Under the pieces are notes generated by a model. It was not told where the DNA came from, made no database searches, and saw only the letters and a program-made list of their open reading frames with translations. Positions 606-48,324 of a DNA stretch of 64,000 nucleotides are shown here, piece after piece. Within the stretch, counting starts at the first letter, position 1. The number at the start of each line of letters is the position of its first letter. Origin of the DNA: Clostridia bacterium (lineage in GTDB: Bacteria; Bacillota; Clostridia; TANB77; CAG-465); contig JAQUWH010000005.1 in NCBI GenBank assembly GCA_028692955.1, positions 4,615 to 68,614 on the forward strand, read 5' to 3'. The translations under genes were made by a program, and so were the position numbers.

Positions 606-2213
606 TTATATTTCATCTTCAGATGCTTCTTTAATCTTTTCTTTTATCATATTATTCATAGATATCACTTTAAAATCTGGTCTAGCAAAGTAATATCCTT
701 GCACATATCTAACACCAATACGCTTTGCAAATTCTAAAATTTCTTTATTTTCTACACCAACGAGTATCAGTTCACATTCTTTTGCAGTAGAAAAAGTTAA
801 TAAATCTGATAAAAATCTCTGTTTATCTTCGTCTTCTAAGATGCCTCTTACCATTGAGATATCTGGTACAATATAGTCTATATTTAACATATTAATATCA
901 TCTAAATTTAAGGTACTAATACCAAAATTATCCAAGGCCACAAATCCACCATTTTTATGAATCATCCCAATAATATCCTGTAATTTATTGAAGTCTTTTC
1001 TTTCATAATTTTGAAATTCAACGATTACTTTATTTCTTCTCATCATATCATAAATTCTTGGTTTATTGATATAATTATCATAACTATATAAATCAACATT
1101 TACGATGATTTTATTTGCCTCTTTAACGGTTAACGCTTCAAAATCTTCTATACCATTAATGAGCAATATTTGTTGTAATTTATCATGTTTTTTAACATCT
1201 TTAGAATATTCAAAAAATTCCATGATATCTATTTTCTTTTTACTTTCTATTTTAGTAAATACCTCATAAGCCCAAACGCTTTGTAATTTTAAGTCTACAA
1301 TAGGCTGATACAAAGTTTTAATTGCTCTTCTAGTCAATACAGAATCCAGTAGTGTCTCAAGTTCATTGACAGAAGCACGAGCCTTCTCTCTATCACCTGA
1401 AATAGCATCTGCTTCTTCTGGTTTTGCCTCTTTTTCTTGTTTATACGAGAAGTAGTTATTGACAAATTCCATGTATTTATTTTTTACAATTTTAAATTTA
1501 CTGTAGACTTCTAAACATTTTGCTTTTGCATCCGCATCTTTTACATCTAATAATAAATAAAATAGTTCTTTATTATTGTTTAATTCTGAAGCTAAAAATT
1601 TCATATTATCATTTGTTATCTCACCTTCATTTAAAAATCTATCATGATATTTAATTAAAGTCAGTATAATTCTTTTTTCATCCTCTGAAAAATAAAATCT
1701 GTTTAGTATGGGTATAGCTAGTTCAACAGATTTATCATCATGTCCAGCAAAACTTTCAGTTCCATCCTCTGCAATTGTTTTTACATATGGTTTTCCTATA
1801 TCATGTAACAACATTGTCCATTTTAATATTCTCTTTTGCCAATCTCCTATTGGTATTTGTGGATTTCCTACAAATTCAATGGCAGCTAGTGTATGTTTAA
1901 AAGTACCATATTTATGATATGTTGAGTTTTGTTGACAGTTAATCATATTCTCTCCATGTGAATTTACTTCATAAAATTCTGGAAATTGAGAAGCAAATAT
2001 TTGGTCCTGACTAACTTTTGTCATGATAAAAGAAACATTATCATCAAACAAGATATTGGTATATACTTTTGTTAATTCAGTTGGATTATTATGATACATT
2101 TTTAGTTTTGAAATAATACCATTTAATTTTGCTACTTCTTTAATATCCATGATATCATTTGATATTTCTTCTGGTTCAATATACGTATCAAAAATCTCGC
2201 CATATTCGTCCAT
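606..2213 (-). CDS. HD-domain plus EAL-type (c-di-GMP phosphodiesterase-like) domain protein
   Basis: 535-aa ORF. HD motifs are LLHDIGKP and GHDDKS. The C-terminal half has EAL-domain landmarks YQPIVDL, ALDNFG, GVENKE and QGYYFARP, but the signature triplet reads EVF instead of EAL. Confidence 0.7.
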   Translation of the reverse strand: MDEYGEIFDTYIEPEEISNDIMDIKEVAKLNGIISKLKMYHNNPTELTKVYTNILFDDNVSFIMTKVSQDQIFASQFPEFYEVNSHGENMINCQQNSTYHKYGTFKHTLAAIEFVGNPQIPIGDWQKRILKWTMLLHDIGKPYVKTIAEDGTESFAGHDDKSVELAIPILNRFYFSEDEKRIILTLIKYHDRFLNEGEITNDNMKFLASELNNNKELFYLLLDVKDADAKAKCLEVYSKFKIVKNKYMEFVNNYFSYKQEKEAKPEEADAISGDREKARASVNELETLLDSVLTRRAIKTLYQPIVDLKLQSVWAYEVFTKIESKKKIDIMEFFEYSKDVKKHDKLQQILLINGIEDFEALTVKEANKIIVNVDLYSYDNYINKPRIYDMMRRNKVIVEFQNYERKDFNKLQDIIGMIHKNGGFVALDNFGISTLNLDDINMLNIDYIVPDISMVRGILEDEDKQRFLSDLLTFSTAKECELILVGVENKEILEFAKRIGVRYVQGYYFARPDFKVISMNNMIKEKIKEASEDEI

Positions 2214-2401
2214 TTTATAACCTCTTTTCTATGTTAATAAAGTTTATTTATTTCATTATTATACTATTATATATTACTATAAATACTGCTTTTTTGCAAG
2301 AGTTTTAAAAGCAAATTAAGTATTTACATTTTATTTCATAAATCGCCTATTATCTCTATTATACGATTTTGTTAATTTTTAAAGTTTTTTACCCGTTATT
2401 G

Positions 2402-2430
2402 TTGACATTTTGCCTTTTTAAAGGTATAAT
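2402..2430 (+). promoter_or_regulatory. Sigma-A type promoter for rplM-rpsI
   Basis: TTGACA (2402-2407), a 17-nt spacer, then TATAAT (2425-2430), about 80 nt upstream of the rplM ATG. Confidence 0.75.
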
Positions 2431-2448
2431 ATTTAAGTATCGAATAAA

Positions 2449-2486
2449 AAGTCAGCTAAACCCCGGAAGGTTTGACTTGTTTTATT
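2449..2486 (+). promoter_or_regulatory. Leader stem-loop with U-tract upstream of rplM (possible r-protein L13-type autoregulatory leader or attenuator)
   Basis: AAGTC..AAACC (loop ccggaa) GGTTT GACTT, followed by GTTTTATT, lying between the promoter and the rplM SD. Confidence 0.35.
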
Positions 2487-2509
2487 ATGTATTAGGAGGA
2501 AATTAAAAA

Positions 2510-2944
2510 ATGAATAATACTACACATAGTGTAAAAGCTAAAGAAATTGAAAAAAAATGGTATGTGATAGATGCAGCGAATAGACCTCTTGGTAGAGTTG
2601 CTAGCGAAATCGCTAAATTATTAAAAGGAAAACACAAACCAACTTATTCTACACATTTAGATTGTGGTGATAATGTTATCGTAATAAATTCTGATAAAAT
2701 TGTTTTAACAGGAAACAAATTAAACCAAAAAGTTTATAGAACTCATTCTGGTTATATAGGTGGATTGAAAGAGACTCCTTACAAAGATTTAATGGCTAAT
2801 AGCTCAGATAAAGCTTTGTTACTTGCAGTAAAAGGAATGTTACCTGGTAATTCATTAGGTAGACAATTACTTACAAATGTAAGAGTATTTAAAGGTAGTG
2901 AACATACTCATGATGCACAAAAACCTTTAAATTGGGAATTTTAG
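2510..2944 (+). CDS. rplM: 50S ribosomal protein L13
   Basis: 144-aa ORF with WYVIDA..RPLGRVAS.IA..L.GKHKP.Y, typical of L13. GGAGG SD upstream. Confidence 0.95.
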   Translation: MNNTTHSVKAKEIEKKWYVIDAANRPLGRVASEIAKLLKGKHKPTYSTHLDCGDNVIVINSDKIVLTGNKLNQKVYRTHSGYIGGLKETPYKDLMANSSDKALLLAVKGMLPGNSLGRQLLTNVRVFKGSEHTHDAQKPLNWEF

Positions 2945-2959
2945 GAGGGAGTTTGAAAA

Positions 2960-3355
2960 ATGGCAAAGAAAGAATATATTTATGCAACAGGAAAAAGAAA
3001 ATCTTCAATTGCAAGAGTTAACATCATTCCTGGAACTGGTAAAATAACAATCAATAAAAAAGATATGAATGAAACATATACGTTAGATACTTTAAAAGCT
3101 ATCGTATTAAAACCTTTTACAGCAACTAATCTAATGGAAAAATATGATGTTGTTGCTACCGTAAATGGCGGTGGATTCGTTGGGCAAGCAGGGGCTATAG
3201 CTCATGGTATTGCAAAAGCACTTGCTACTACAGATCCAGATGTTCATACAACTTTAAAAAGAAATGGTCTTTTAACTAGAGATTCTAGAGTAAAAGAAAG
3301 AAGAAAATACGGTCTTAAGAAAGCAAGAAAAGCACCACAATTTTCAAAGAGATAG
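2960..3355 (+). CDS. rpsI: 30S ribosomal protein S9
   Basis: 131-aa ORF with GKRK.S.ARV at the N-terminus and the C-terminal [24 protein letters not shown] signature. It sits directly downstream of rplM. Confidence 0.95.
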
Positions 3356-3366
3356 ACAATATATAC

Positions 3367-3406
3367 AAAATCCTGCAACCACAACGGTTTGCAGGATTTT
3401 GCTTTT
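3367..3406 (+). terminator. Intrinsic terminator of rplM-rpsI
   Basis: AAAATCCTGCAA / TTGCAGGATTTT 12-bp stem followed by GCTTTT. Confidence 0.85.
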
Positions 3407-3452
3407 ATAAGCTATCATTTTTATAAAAACGATAAAATAAAATTGTAATTTG

Positions 3453-4163
3453 TTATTTACAAAAGGCATCAATATTATCTTTATCATATTTTTGATTTTT
3501 AATCACTTTAAATGTTTCGTTATCTTTGTCAACATTATGCCTTACAACATCATAAAATGGTGTATCGTAGTACATAACATTTTCTCCTGAAATTTTTACT
3601 AATGCAAATCTTGGTGCTTGATGCATGTTAACAACTCCTATATAATCTATCAAGATTAGCAATAATACAAACATTATAAAATATCCAAAATTACAAATTA
3701 ACCTTTTTATATAAGTTAATTTCTTCGTGAATTTACTAATACCTATTAAAGATACCATTACACCAAATATAGAATAAATCGATCCCCAGCTACTTTCACT
3801 AGGAAATATTGCAACAGCAGTAATTGAAATTAACACACCAAATATGATTAATATTAAACCAATAAAATTATTTCTGTTTTCAATTTTTTTATTAGTATAA
3901 TCTATTGTATTAATTATATTTTCCTCCAGCTTATATTGATATTCTTTTTCTTTTACTTTTTCACCACTCATTAAGTCATTAAGTGTTATTTCCAATTCAG
4001 CACATAAAAGTTTAAATAATGATAAGTCAGGCATATTTCTTCCATTTTCCCAATTTCCTACCGTACGATCTGATACACCTAATTTTTCTGCTAATTCTCG
4101 TTGCGTCATATTTTTTTCTTTTCTGCACTCGGCAATAAACCTTCCAATTTTTTCTTGATTCAT
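3453..4163 (-). CDS. XRE-family HTH regulator with C-terminal transmembrane region
   Basis: The N-terminus MTQRELAEKLGVSDRTVGNWENGRNMPD is a classic Cro/C1 HTH. At least three hydrophobic helices follow. Confidence 0.7.
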   Translation of the reverse strand: MNQEKIGRFIAECRKEKNMTQRELAEKLGVSDRTVGNWENGRNMPDLSLFKLLCAELEITLNDLMSGEKVKEKEYQYKLEENIINTIDYTNKKIENRNNFIGLILIIFGVLISITAVAIFPSESSWGSIYSIFGVMVSLIGISKFTKKLTYIKRLICNFGYFIMFVLLLILIDYIGVVNMHQAPRFALVKISGENVMYYDTPFYDVVRHNVDKDNETFKVIKNQKYDKDNIDAFCK

Positions 4164-43165: not shown

Positions 43166-43459
43166 TTATTTATTTACCAAAATTTTCGAATCATTTATTT
43201 TCTTTTGCATATATTTTTGTTTTGTTGCCATTCCACCTCTTATATGCCTTTCATTTTTATGTTGTTTTAAGAGCTCTTGCACTTGTTTAGCAAGTGATGG
43301 CGATATATCTTTAAGTCTATCAGATAAATCTTTATGAATGGTTGATTTTGATACATTAAAATGTTTGGCTGCTTCTCTTACTGTTTGCCCTGTTTCTAAT
43401 ACATATACGGCAATTTTTTTTGCTCTGTCTTCTATAGTATTAATTTTATTATAATACAT
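43166..43459 (-). CDS. spoIIID: Sporulation transcriptional regulator SpoIIID (copy 1)
   Basis: Contains ETGQTVREAAK.F.VSKSTIHKDL..RL and NERHIRGG.ATK.KY, matching B. subtilis SpoIIID. Confidence 0.85.
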   Translation of the reverse strand: MYYNKINTIEDRAKKIAVYVLETGQTVREAAKHFNVSKSTIHKDLSDRLKDISPSLAKQVQELLKQHKNERHIRGGMATKQKYMQKKINDSKILVNK

Positions 43460-43599
43460 ACCCTTACCTCCATTGCTTGTTACATCTATATGCGCAGGGA
43501 CAAGATTTATGTATGTATTGACTATTTTTTCGACTTGATTTTTAATTTTGCTTTGTTTAAGAAAAACAGATTGTATTAAGCTATCTATTTACCTATTTT

Positions 43600-43884
43600 T
43601 TATACTGCCTCTTTATGAAGCTTTATATCTTTTAATTTTATATATTTTTTCCTTGTTGCAAGCCCCCCTCTTATATGTCTTTCATTTTTATTTTGTTCTA
43701 ATACTAGTTTTACCTCTTTAGCAAGAACTGAATTGATTTTTTCTAGTCTATCTGTTATATCCTTGTGAACAGTGGACTTAGATATACAAAATACTTTTGC
43801 TACCTCTCTTACAGTATCTCCTGTTTCTATCATATATCGTGCAATTTGAATAACTCTTTCTTCAATTTCATCTGTTATGTACAT
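43600..43884 (-). CDS. spoIIID: SpoIIID paralog (copy 2)
   Basis: Contains ETGDTVREVAKVFCISKSTVHKDITDRL and NERHIRGGLATRKKY. ATG 43884 is 6 nt after AGGAGGA (track start 43908). Confidence 0.8.
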   Translation of the reverse strand: MYITDEIEERVIQIARYMIETGDTVREVAKVFCISKSTVHKDITDRLEKINSVLAKEVKLVLEQNKNERHIRGGLATRKKYIKLKDIKLHKEAV

Positions 43885-43936
43885 ATTGATTCCTCCTACT
43901 AATATCATTTCACTTTGTTACTATTGTTTCCCCATT

Positions 43937-44983: not shown

Positions 44984-45997
44984 TTAGTTTAATTTTTCAA
45001 TTTTTACCCCTGTATAATAATGTTCAATAATCTGCCTATAATCCATACCATGACTTCCATAATAATTAGCACCTACTTGACTCATACCAACACCATGCCC
45101 ATAACCGATTACATGAAATATCACCGTACTGTCTTTTATTTCAATGGTAAAATTAGTTGATTTTAATCCAATCATTGTTCTTAATTTTTCAGCGCTTACC
45201 TTTTGGTCTCTAATCTGAACATTTTTTACTCTTCCTGTTATAGTATAATCACCTATCTTGATATTTTTTATATCACTACTATTATAACCTTTACATAGAT
45301 TATTCTCTTTTAATTTATTCAAAAACTCATCACAATTAATTTCTACTGTACTAGTTCTATTCGAATACGACTCATCTTCTAAACTTTCCACTTTTACTAA
45401 ATAACTTAATGTTTCACCTCCCCATATTTGACTAATATCTTCTGTCCCTTGCGGACTACTTGCATGGAAAAATGCTTTGATACATTCCCCATTGTATGTT
45501 ATAATTTCATTTTGTGTAGATACTACTGCTGTATTAATTCTGTCCCAAAAATCTAATATTGTTCTTTCGTCATAGCCTCTACGCCTCCAAATTTCAAATA
45601 ACTTCTCTTTTGGGTAGAATGCTTGACAATGTGCATAACTGTCACACATATCAGCATCTTCTCCTTCTGCATGAGCAGAAAGCTTTCTATACGTATATGT
45701 CCTAGCAACCAATGCTTGTGCCTTTAATGCCTCCATATTATATGTAGGTGACATTTCAGATGGGACAACCCCTCTTAGATAATCATTAATATCCATTGCT
45801 ACAATTTCTCCTGTTTTTGTATACTTTACTCTTATAGTTTGATCGGCTTTATATTCAATGGTATTTTTTTCTTTTTTTTCTTCAATCTCTTGTTGCTCTT
45901 TTTTCTTTTTATTTTGCTCTATTCTAAATAAATTCATACAAAACAATATTACAGTTAATGCTAAAAAAAGGTACAAAAAAACAAGCCATTTTTTCAA
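44984..45997 (-). CDS. spoIID: Stage II sporulation protein D (SpoIID/LytB domain lytic transglycosylase)
   Basis: Contains YL.GVVP.EM......EALKAQA..ARTY, C....CQ.Y and GHGVGMSQ.GA...A..G..Y..I..HYY.G. Confidence 0.85.
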   Translation of the reverse strand: MKKWLVFLYLFLALTVILFCMNLFRIEQNKKKKEQQEIEEKKEKNTIEYKADQTIRVKYTKTGEIVAMDINDYLRGVVPSEMSPTYNMEALKAQALVARTYTYRKLSAHAEGEDADMCDSYAHCQAFYPKEKLFEIWRRRGYDERTILDFWDRINTAVVSTQNEIITYNGECIKAFFHASSPQGTEDISQIWGGETLSYLVKVESLEDESYSNRTSTVEINCDEFLNKLKENNLCKGYNSSDIKNIKIGDYTITGRVKNVQIRDQKVSAEKLRTMIGLKSTNFTIEIKDSTVIFHVIGYGHGVGMSQVGANYYGSHGMDYRQIIEHYYTGVKIEKLN

Positions 45998-46055
45998 TAT
46001 ATATCACCTTAACATATATATATTCATGACTTGTTTTTTTATGACTGTTTGTCCA

Positions 46056-46089
46056 CAAAAACAAAAAGAAATGCAAGATTTCTTGCATT
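46056..46089 (-). terminator. Intrinsic terminator of the ATPase/RloB pair
   Basis: Minus strand AATGCAAG-aaat-CTTGCATT followed by TCTTTTTGTTTTTG. Confidence 0.75.
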
Positions 46090-46114
46090 CCCCCTATTCA
46101 ATTATCCTTATGTT

Positions 46115-46777
46115 TTATTTTAAGATCATTTCTTCTAGGAGCTTTCCAACGTTAGAACCTAGTTTATACTTTAATCCTTCTGTTTCTTCACAAAATTGTT
46201 TTTCATTTTGTATAGCTTGGTTTATATTTGGTTGAAATTTTTCAAAAGCCACATTTCTTTTATTGCATCCAAATATTTCCGCAAGCTTTACTTCTAAGTA
46301 TCTTTTATTTTTATTAACCTTTTTATTTTCTAGCATTTCTTTTTTATTTAGGCTTAATATTGCGTCATTGTGCATCAGTAGGAACAATTCAAATGTTGGA
46401 TTTGACACGAAAACAGAGTAGTTGTATTTTTCACATAAGCTTAACATCTTATCATATTGTTCTACACTAAAGTTTTGTGGATCTCTATCTATAACAAAAC
46501 ACACTTTGTCTATCTCTTTATAGTATAAAAATTTGCCGTCCTCTAAATCCTTATTAAAATTATCAATCTTTCTTAACGGATGACTTTCTCCCATTTCGCT
46601 TTGATCATTTTCTATAGGTATAATTTCAATAAGTGAGTTAATATTTATTTCTTGAGCATTATCTCTTATTCCAAGAAAATATTGTATTTCTGTTTTATCG
46701 CCTTCAGGAATAATATAGTATTTTGATTTTGGGGGTAAACCTAATGAAGTTCTTACTAATTTACTCGCCTCTCTCAC
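46115..46777 (-). CDS. RloB-like (TOPRIM-type) protein, AbiLii-like
   Basis: 220 aa. YYIIPEGDKTEIQYF (conserved Glu block) and CFVIDRDPQN (DxD block), as in the RloB family. The GTG start overlaps the ATPase stop (TAGTG). Confidence 0.65.
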   Translation of the reverse strand: MREASKLVRTSLGLPPKSKYYIIPEGDKTEIQYFLGIRDNAQEININSLIEIIPIENDQSEMGESHPLRKIDNFNKDLEDGKFLYYKEIDKVCFVIDRDPQNFSVEQYDKMLSLCEKYNYSVFVSNPTFELFLLMHNDAILSLNKKEMLENKKVNKNKRYLEVKLAEIFGCNKRNVAFEKFQPNINQAIQNEKQFCEETEGLKYKLGSNVGKLLEEMILK

Positions 46778-48150
46778 TATTTATCATCTCCAATCGGAAA
46801 TAATGCTTCAAATATAGGTACACCACCATATCTTCCATCCAAGTAAGCCTTATCTATTTTTCTGTCAAATCTTTCGTTATAATCTTCTAGTGAATATAGT
46901 TTTGTTGGCCCATTTTTTTCTCTATCAGCAAACCAAATTTCATCTCTTCTTAGTAATTCGAAATCCAAAAGTCTAGATTCATGAGTAGTCACAATTAACT
47001 GTATATTATTTCTATTATTATTTCTCAAAAATGTTTCTACAAACTTATAAGTTAGTTGTGGATGTAGACACCTATCTAATTCGTCGATAAGGTAGACTCT
47101 TGTTGTTGTATCATTTAACAAGATTTCTATCAAATCTAATACTCTTCTTGTTCCATCTGATTCTTCTGAAAATGAATATTCACCATCATTATTTATATGT
47201 TCAAATTTAATCGTTTTGATTTCTAAAGTCTCAGCACTAATTTTTTCAAATATATATAATTCATTATTTGCTCTTAAAAAAGTATTGGATTTAACATTCC
47301 TATCGCCTTGTTTAGTTGCGTCCATGTAATTTTTTTCTGTAAATTTTACCACATCATTCAAAATTTGTGATGGAATTCTGGTTGCTAATTCATCCATTTT
47401 AACTGGTTCAATCTTACACTTACTAATTCCAGTTCCAAATTTAGAAACAATCTCTGTAATTTTTTCCAAATTTTCTTCTGAAGCATAATAGGAATCGTCA
47501 ATCATTTTTCCCTCTGGTGGTATGACAACTAAGGCTTGTGAAAACCAGTTATAAATATCTCTAAAAATTACTATATTATTGTTTGCTTGATATAATGCAT
47601 CTTTGTTTCTATTCATAACAGTAAGAAACAAAACATTATCTTGATCTTGTATATCCATTGCATATATCTTCAATCTTTCTAGTGATATTTGATTATTAAA
47701 GTATTTTTCATTTAATTCTATTTCTTTATTTACTTCTCTAACAAAAATTTTATTTTCTTCCCCATTTTTATTTAATTCGTATAGCCATTCTGCTTTAATA
47801 GAATTTTTTGATAACAATACATCAAAGCCATATGAATAATATTTATCATTGATCATTATTTCAAAATCGAAAGTGGTTATTTTATCTTTGTTTTTTGAAT
47901 TAATTTTGCAATACATGTTATTAGTAAAACGAATTCCTTTAGTTATTATTCCCTGTCCAAAATCAATGGCTCTTAATAGACTAGACTTACCTGAAGCATT
48001 TGCTCCAAATAATGCTGAAAATTTTAATAATTTTAAATCATCATTAGTTTGAATATGATCTTCTTTTCCTCTAGTTCTACCAGAAATCATTGATATTTCT
48101 TGGGCATCATCAAAAGATAAAAAATTAGATATTTTAAATTTTATTAACAT
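46777..48150 (-). CDS. AAA_15/AAA_21-type (SMC/ABC-like) ATPase, AbiLi/RloA-like
   Basis: 457 aa. N-terminal FKISNFLSF, Walker A GANASGKSS, Walker B YLIDELDRCLHP and the TTHES block. Confidence 0.7.
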   Translation of the reverse strand: MLIKFKISNFLSFDDAQEISMISGRTRGKEDHIQTNDDLKLLKFSALFGANASGKSSLLRAIDFGQGIITKGIRFTNNMYCKINSKNKDKITTFDFEIMINDKYYSYGFDVLLSKNSIKAEWLYELNKNGEENKIFVREVNKEIELNEKYFNNQISLERLKIYAMDIQDQDNVLFLTVMNRNKDALYQANNNIVIFRDIYNWFSQALVVIPPEGKMIDDSYYASEENLEKITEIVSKFGTGISKCKIEPVKMDELATRIPSQILNDVVKFTEKNYMDATKQGDRNVKSNTFLRANNELYIFEKISAETLEIKTIKFEHINNDGEYSFSEESDGTRRVLDLIEILLNDTTTRVYLIDELDRCLHPQLTYKFVETFLRNNNRNNIQLIVTTHESRLLDFELLRRDEIWFADREKNGPTKLYSLEDYNERFDRKIDKAYLDGRYGGVPIFEALFPIGDDK

Positions 48151-48271
48151 ACTTTACCTTCTTTCTATTATATTATATGTGAATTTATCACTTTTGTCAA
48201 CCAATTTATCTTTGATTTCATGTCTTATTTTGTATTTTTATGGTTTTTAAGTGTTTTTTTCTCCTAAATAC

Positions 48272-48309
48272 TCAAAAAAGCGAGATGATTATATAAATCA
48301 ATCTCGCTT
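48272..48309 (-). terminator. Intrinsic terminator closing the large surface/pilus-associated locus
   Basis: Minus strand AAGCGAGAT-(14-nt loop)-ATCTCGCTT followed by TTTTTTG. Confidence 0.75.
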
Positions 48310-48324
48310 TTCTTTTACTTACTA

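Follow-up and report, generated by a model that had tools for sequence, protein, structure and literature searches.

An AbiL-type ATPase–RloB cassette with a conserved promoter palindrome in a variable chromosomal slot of a Clostridia bacterium

The locus and its family assignment

The DNA analysed here is a 64,000-nt stretch from the genome of a Clostridia bacterium (the window, in whose coordinates all positions are given), and our subject is a pair of adjacent genes on its minus strand, abiLi and abiLii, that code for an ATPase and for a protein of the RloB family. The sequencing run that contains the sequence is a landfill metagenome, and the source genome (1.25 Mb in 25 contigs) has a single RloB gene. 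Where homologues are labelled, G denotes a genome and L a locus that was compared. The two genes are:

46777-48150, minus strand: abiLi, an open reading frame (ORF) for a 457-amino-acid (aa) Rad50/SMC-like ABC ATPase, identified from Pfam and PADLOC matches, invariant motifs, an AlphaFold2 model and Foldseek
46115-46777, minus strand: abiLii, an ORF for a 220-aa RloB-family protein, a putative Toprim-like nuclease effector, identified from Pfam and PADLOC matches, conserved residues and an AlphaFold2 model

An earlier, sequence-only reading of this DNA had proposed that the pair has the ATPase plus RloB architecture of AbiL, and profile searches bore this out, with Pfam matches that lie far above the curated cut-offs. 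The 457-aa protein matched the PADLOC AbiLi model at 2.6e-77 and, in Pfam, AAA_21 at 2e-29 (104 bits, cut-off 27) as well as AAA_15 at 4e-10. The 220-aa protein matched Pfam RloB at 4.8e-27 (95.8 bits, cut-off 31.5) over profile positions 1-195 of 195, and PADLOC AbiLii at 2.4e-17, these being its sole matches in either collection, while all NCBIfam matches of the pair were below threshold (MAD3, for example, with 27 bits, cut-off 420). The motifs on which the sequence-only reading had relied were also located: in the ATPase, Walker A (GANASGKSS) at residues 49-57, Walker B (YLIDELDRCLHP) at residues 353-364 and, for the N-terminal F.I.NF..F block, FKISNFLSF; in the 220-aa protein, PEGDKTEIQYF and FVIDRD as the two RloB-type blocks. 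The locus thus has what PADLOC and DefenseFinder understand by AbiL, namely an AbiLi-type ATPase, an RloB partner, an adjacent, co-oriented operon with the ATPase gene first, and intact motifs. We conclude that, as judged from its sequence, the pair is an intact, horizontally distributed AbiL-type cassette (AbiLi/AbiLii, RloA/RloB-like) and an ordinary member of a known family.

Conserved features of the ATPase and of the RloB protein

The ATPase has its Walker A motif at G49-S56, the signature motif at S331-D-G-T334, Walker B at D356-E357 and the H-loop at H390. Across 32 homologues of 48-82% identity, G49-K55, S331, G333, T334, D356-E357 (including the catalytic Glu) and H390 are invariant. 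The AlphaFold2 model has a predicted local distance difference test score (pLDDT) of 83.5, and its Foldseek matches include Rad50 (9.5e-12), PtuA (1e-9), OLD of Thermus scotoductus (6e-9) and retron-associated ATPases. The C-terminal tail, residues 425-457 (ERFDRKIDKAYLDGRYGGVPIF...; window positions 46777-46875), is near-invariant among the homologues yet was modelled with a pLDDT below 50, which suggests a segment that binds a partner; it may dock AbiLii or serve in oligomerisation. Relatives of the ATPase number in the thousands.

In the RloB protein, G26, E30, Y33, D97, N126, P127, F129 and H136 are invariant in 49 family members with identities down to ~30%, and E25, T29, R98, D99 and E130 are conserved in at least 90% of the same set. 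Loss of catalytic residues, which the sequence-only reading had named as an outcome that would speak against it, was therefore seen in neither protein, the ATPase motifs being invariant and the acidic residues of the partner invariant or at least 90% conserved. The AbiLii model (pLDDT 92.2, predicted template modelling score 0.88) has a predicted beta-alpha-beta-alpha-beta-alpha-beta core in which E25 stands directly after beta1, D97-R-D99 ends beta3 and N126-P-x-F-E130 follows beta4. A Glu after beta1 together with a DxD that ends beta3 is cited as a hallmark of the Toprim domain (Aravind 1998, as cited in PMC11464382). The sole match of the AbiLii model in a Foldseek search of BFVD was another RloB-like viral protein (1.7e-6).

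Relatives of the RloB protein form 914 representative clusters at E <= 1e-3 and occur in Bacillota, Spirochaetota, Bacteroidota, Fibrobacterota, Elusimicrobiota and Cloacimonadota, among others. They fall into two length classes, one of ~220 aa, as in the window, and one of ~300-325 aa that aligns to the query in two stretches, implying an insertion or an extra N-terminal module.

Operon layout

The signals for expression of the pair and the terminator next to it are as follows:

46775-46791, minus strand: coupling junction, with an internal Shine-Dalgarno sequence GGAG (46791-46788) and an overlapping stop/start ATAGTG
48172-48200, minus strand: sigma-70-type promoter, TTGACA (48200-48195), a 17-nt spacer and TATAAT (48177-48172), 12/12 to consensus
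46057-46094, minus strand: intrinsic terminator of the pair, a 13-bp stem and U-tract
48274-48309, minus strand: terminator of the upstream gene for a 1337-aa protein, outside the cassette and marking its upstream boundary

It can be seen from the junction, AAATAGTGAGA, that the TAG of abiLi and the GTG of abiLii overlap by one base, as had been noted from the sequence, and that GGAG lies 10 nt upstream of the start, inside the ATPase coding sequence. In homologues the junction is either an overlap of 14-22 nt or a gap of 13 nt. We take the GTG to be the true start of abiLii since it is the first start codon in its frame, lies at the position of the ATG in homologous cassettes and opens a conserved N-terminus (MRExSK/MRIxS). 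To judge by this arrangement, abiLi and abiLii are translationally coupled. The terminator that had been claimed for the pair has a folding energy of -21.5 kcal/mol (z = -5.4) and is not a conserved element of these cassettes. At the other end, cassette-borne similarity begins just downstream of the terminator of the 1337-aa gene. As the pair has a promoter and a terminator of its own and the upstream gene is separately terminated, it would be transcribed as an autonomous unit.

The cassette occupies a variable slot

Across the genus the gene order around the pair is big1475, mreB, spoIIID, an M23 peptidase gene, spoIID, the slot, a large secreted-protein gene, p430/p434 and p400. The slot itself is delimited as follows:

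45998-48324: variable slot from spoIID to the large secreted-protein gene (compared in loci L025-L031)

We found that the slot is ~190 bp long and empty in G010 and G002. In G017, G013, G003 and G024 it is filled by small, unrelated ORFs, and in G007 by a gene for a protein of 944 aa, pilin-like as judged by eye, with a hydrophobic N-terminus. In G021 the place of the slot is taken by an ABC transporter, and neither the large secreted-protein gene nor p430/p434 was detected at that locus. The position between spoIID and the secreted-protein gene is a cargo hotspot in the genus. Since the surrounding order is conserved and the slot is empty or filled with unrelated cargo in relatives, the cassette is an accessory insertion, and the pair is not core in these genomes. 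The sequence-only reading had placed the pair at a boundary between core and accessory DNA; this has to be revised, as both flanks keep their gene order throughout the genus, with the cassette in a variable slot between them.

An orthologue of the ATPase was found in one of 24 same-genus genomes, G002, with 74% identity. There abiLi is intact and lies in a different slot, between mreB and spoIIID (L024, G002:C12, positions 2100-3566, minus strand), and what is left of abiLii is an ORF of 18 codons, MRIAS followed by SNVGTLLNSMMDD and a stop codon, in which the first 5 and last 13 codons are joined, so that an in-frame deletion of ~200 codons must have taken place. Both copies of the promoter palindrome described below are degenerate in G002. 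Retention of abiLi with loss of abiLii is what would be expected if the nuclease were the toxic part, and the pattern fits a nuclease that is dispensable or toxic.

A second AbiL-like subfamily was seen at other chromosomal sites in four genomes of the same genus or order (G025, G023, G015 and G008; loci L004-L007), where a 406-431-aa ATPase gene overlaps a gene for a 211-224-aa protein with an RloB-type CEG..TE..YF block, the latter recognised by motif alone.

The assembly graph of the source run breaks at 45982-46002, between the start of spoIID and the AbiL terminator, where A-tract variants (46009-46015) are present at higher depth; a k-mer branch in low-complexity sequence is the probable cause. 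Among the contigs of the source landfill metagenome and of a sister sample, none with an empty site was seen. Elsewhere in the window, two tandem spoIIID paralogues lie at 43166-43908 on the minus strand. Both match the one single spoIIID gene in each of seven same-genus loci, and the duplication therefore appears specific to the source genome.

Pairing and neighbourhoods across RloB loci

In 77 of the 79 RloB loci that could be evaluated, drawn from many phyla, the gene immediately upstream, in the same orientation, codes for an AbiLi-type ATPase. The other two (L095 and L123, both Sphaerochaetaceae) have an orphan long-form RloB gene (328-334 aa) directly after a major facilitator superfamily transporter gene, and no ATPase gene. 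We conclude that, on these gene orders, the pairing of abiLi and abiLii is near-obligatory.

Close homologue pairs occupy defence-type neighbourhoods. A 79%-identical ATPase homologue (L034) lies directly upstream of hsdM-hsdS-hsdR, a type I restriction–modification (R-M) system, with Macro/NUDIX genes also adjacent, and another close pair (L035) adjoins Phd/ParE. At L038/L039 the upstream flank differs between samples and includes a DDE transposase. The same architecture was also found on a Bacillus mycoides plasmid and in the lactococcal prophage proPhi7.

Promoter palindromes

When the flanks of cassettes from different contexts were aligned, conservation extended over ~125 nt upstream, a stretch that takes in the promoter with its spacer, TTGACAaaaGTGAAAAAATCACaTAtAAT, and no similarity was found downstream of the abiLii stop codon. 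The promoter with its spacer is conserved in G002, L034, L035, L038 and L062-L064. Two operator-like elements lie in this leader:

48179-48191, minus strand: proximal palindrome, GTGA-TAAAT-TCAC, within the promoter spacer; intact, candidate operator
48251-48263, minus strand: distal operator-like motif, GAGAAAAAAACAC, degenerate; 72 nt upstream of the proximal copy and at the upstream limit of cassette-borne conservation

The frequency of the motif was assessed in 200 nt upstream of each of 73 loci (14.6 kb in total). At least one G-W7-CAC motif is present in 39 of these loci and the strict GTGA-W5-TCAC palindrome in 33. Exactly two copies were found in 19, with spacings of 62-63 nt in 15 loci, of 72-73 nt in 4 and of 22 nt in one case; the two commonest spacings equal 6 or 7 turns of the helix. 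The spacer palindrome with its second copy was noted, besides the window, in L034, L035, L062-L066, L082, L088, L090, L092-L094, L104, L105, L111, L114, L117 and L118. The pattern G[AT]7CAC gave 58 forward matches, or 3.97 per kb, against a background of 0.05 per kb per strand in 515 kb (an enrichment of ~80-fold) and against a mean of 1.2 and a maximum of 5 in shuffled sequence. The palindrome is conserved across phyla together with the cassette.

Operators of the CRP/Rex type read GTGA-N6-TCAC, and a CRP/Rex-type identity was rejected, the central spacer here being N5. We found no report of a GTGA-N5-TCAC operator in AbiL promoters in the literature. As there is no regulator gene within the cassette and the motif crosses phyla along with it, the simplest reading would be autorepression by AbiLi and/or AbiLii. 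We tentatively propose, at somewhat below even odds, that a complex of the ABC ATPase and the RloB protein binds two helically phased GTGA-N5-TCAC operators and so regulates its own synthesis, in which case release of the nuclease on infection would also de-repress the operon.

Interpretation and alternative explanations

Our preferred interpretation, to which we assign a probability of about 0.8, is a joint one: the pair would form a self-contained AbiL-type anti-phage cassette of ~2.2 kb, with AbiLi as sensor and restrainer, AbiLii as nuclease, and repression of the cassette's own promoter. By analogy with PARIS and with validated toxin–antitoxin (TA) pairs of the AAA:RloB type, AbiLi oligomers would keep the AbiLii nuclease inactive and sense infection; on a phage cue, and with binding or hydrolysis of ATP, AbiLi would then free or activate AbiLii, which may cut nucleic acid (RNA/tRNA or DNA) through a metal-dependent acidic site made up of E25, D97, D99 and E130, and cleavage would stop phage development and possibly host growth. 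The palindrome in the spacer and its upstream twin may serve as an operator pair for repression by the cassette's own proteins, as in type II TA systems. The founding AbiL member makes its host resistant to phage (Deng 1999, as cited in PMC13064643), and a table in the citing review enters lactococcal AbiL as blocking phages after transcription; the same review describes the mechanism as still untested. AbiL has been classed with PARIS and OLD as an ABC ATPase plus TOPRIM system (PMC11464382), and an RloB-type:AAA pair of Clostridium algidicarnis has been validated as a toxin:antitoxin pair (PMC10440598).

Several observations weigh against this interpretation. When the AbiLii model was compared with the PDB using Foldseek, nothing was found below E = 0.018 and no solved Toprim structure was retrieved; a search of PDB sequences with the RloB hidden Markov model profile gave nothing meaningful, and the RloB profile, when aligned by hhalign with 19 OLD-like_TOPRIM proteins of Clostridia, both full-length and trimmed, gave non-significant values (E 0.07-0.13) with only two motifs in register. 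The proposed link of AbiLii to Toprim is thus drawn from the predicted order of strands and helices, the positions of the motifs and the literature, and was not reproduced by our own Foldseek and profile tests. The base and GC composition of the cassette does not contrast with its flanks, and neither repeats, direct or inverted, nor mobility genes were found on either side of it. As to self-regulation, the distal palindrome is degenerate in this cassette, and no helix-turn-helix or other DNA-binding domain was detected in AbiLi or AbiLii.

We also considered that the pair might be a purely selfish addiction module, with AbiLii as toxin and AbiLi as antitoxin, kept by post-segregational or anti-deletion effects without any part in phage defence. 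Pairs of the AAA:RloB type do function as toxin and antitoxin in E. coli, and no hits came from a phage screen of a related system in which an AAA antitoxin neutralises a different, RNase-like toxin (PMC10440598); the decay in G002, where the toxin was lost and the ATPase kept, fits TA logic, and the palindromic operator resembles those of TA autoregulation. Nevertheless, we regard this as unlikely, given the phage resistance reported for the founding family member, the neighbourhoods of homologues (R-M, Macro/NUDIX and TA genes) and the fact that TA behaviour and defence are compatible, PARIS showing both. A domesticated AbiL-like pair with a cellular, for example regulatory, role and no part in defence is very improbable. 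The pair does lie between sporulation genes and a block of pilus and secreted-protein genes on the same strand, with a composition like that of its host, but its catalytic residues are intact and conserved, 23 of 24 congeners lack it, the single other copy sits in a different slot and is decayed, and its own promoter and terminator argue that it is not wired into the neighbouring operons.

Assignment to PARIS (AriA/AriB) or to another OLD-class system in place of AbiL is less credible still, to the point that we give it hardly any weight. The PADLOC AriA model does match the ATPase at 3.8e-30, the GajA and PtuA models match weakly, and the fold resembles OLD and PtuA; however, the AriA match coincides with that of Pfam AAA_21 in coordinates and length and looks like a generic-domain match, AbiLi is far better at 2.6e-77, and the partner matches only RloB/AbiLii and neither DUF4435 nor OLD-like_TOPRIM. 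Because the partner is an RloB protein and the AriA match shares its coordinates with AAA_21, membership of PARIS or Gabija was rejected. OLD classes 1-3, which comprise fused ATPase-Toprim proteins, Gabija and retron-linked systems and are marked by a single ATPase-Toprim polypeptide or by a UvrD-like or reverse transcriptase partner, were rejected as well, as there are two separate proteins, no helicase or reverse transcriptase neighbour, and no match in a search of the source genome for PF20469.

Significance and comparison with known systems

AbiL-type modules are very common, with 914 RloB clusters and thousands of ATPase relatives, and the gene pair itself adds little to them. What the locus offers is a cleanly bounded example, in which the mobile unit is a leader of ~125 nt plus abiLi and abiLii, with no conserved terminator, and in a congener a natural toxin-deleted relic that supports a TA-like logic for the AbiL family. 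The conserved twin candidate operator is the only non-trivial aspect of the cassette; such a phylum-spanning twin operator in AbiL promoters would open the silencing of these systems directly to experiment.

The AbiL system of Lactococcus lactis pND861 likewise has the ATPase first and the RloB protein second, tightly coupled, and both PADLOC models match the present pair, which differs in being chromosomal and in belonging to uncultured small-genome Clostridia. The likeness is judged through the PADLOC models. In the plasmid and phage collections searched, the one lactococcal pair found was that of prophage proPhi7, a distant relative whose ATPase is 27% identical to that described here and whose RloB protein matches at 4.6e-25.

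Paired repeats at or near the promoter of an Abi/TA operon are a feature shared with AbiE (AbiEi/AbiEii), which autoregulates via inverted repeats in its promoter (as cited in PMC13064643). AbiEi has a recognisable DNA-binding domain, whereas none is detectable in either AbiL protein, and the operator in our cassette is a candidate. The pair of domains in the cassette is the same as that of RloA/RloB from Campylobacter type I R-M loci and of the NetFlax pair AAA(D29):RloB-type(D44) (PMC10440598). Unlike the Campylobacter genes, this copy has no adjacent R-M system; in comparison with the NetFlax pairs, the decay in G002 would fit a nuclease that is the toxin and an ATPase that is the antitoxin.

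PARIS (AriA/AriB, a class 4 OLD-like system; PMC11464382) follows the same plan, with an ABC ATPase as scaffold or sensor, a separate small metal-dependent nuclease and TA-like behaviour. The effector is RloB here and DUF4435 in PARIS, and AbiLii and AriB are described in a review as having no significant sequence similarity and superposing poorly in structure. We conclude that, at the level of this shared plan, PARIS is the best mechanistic analogue of the AbiL cassette.

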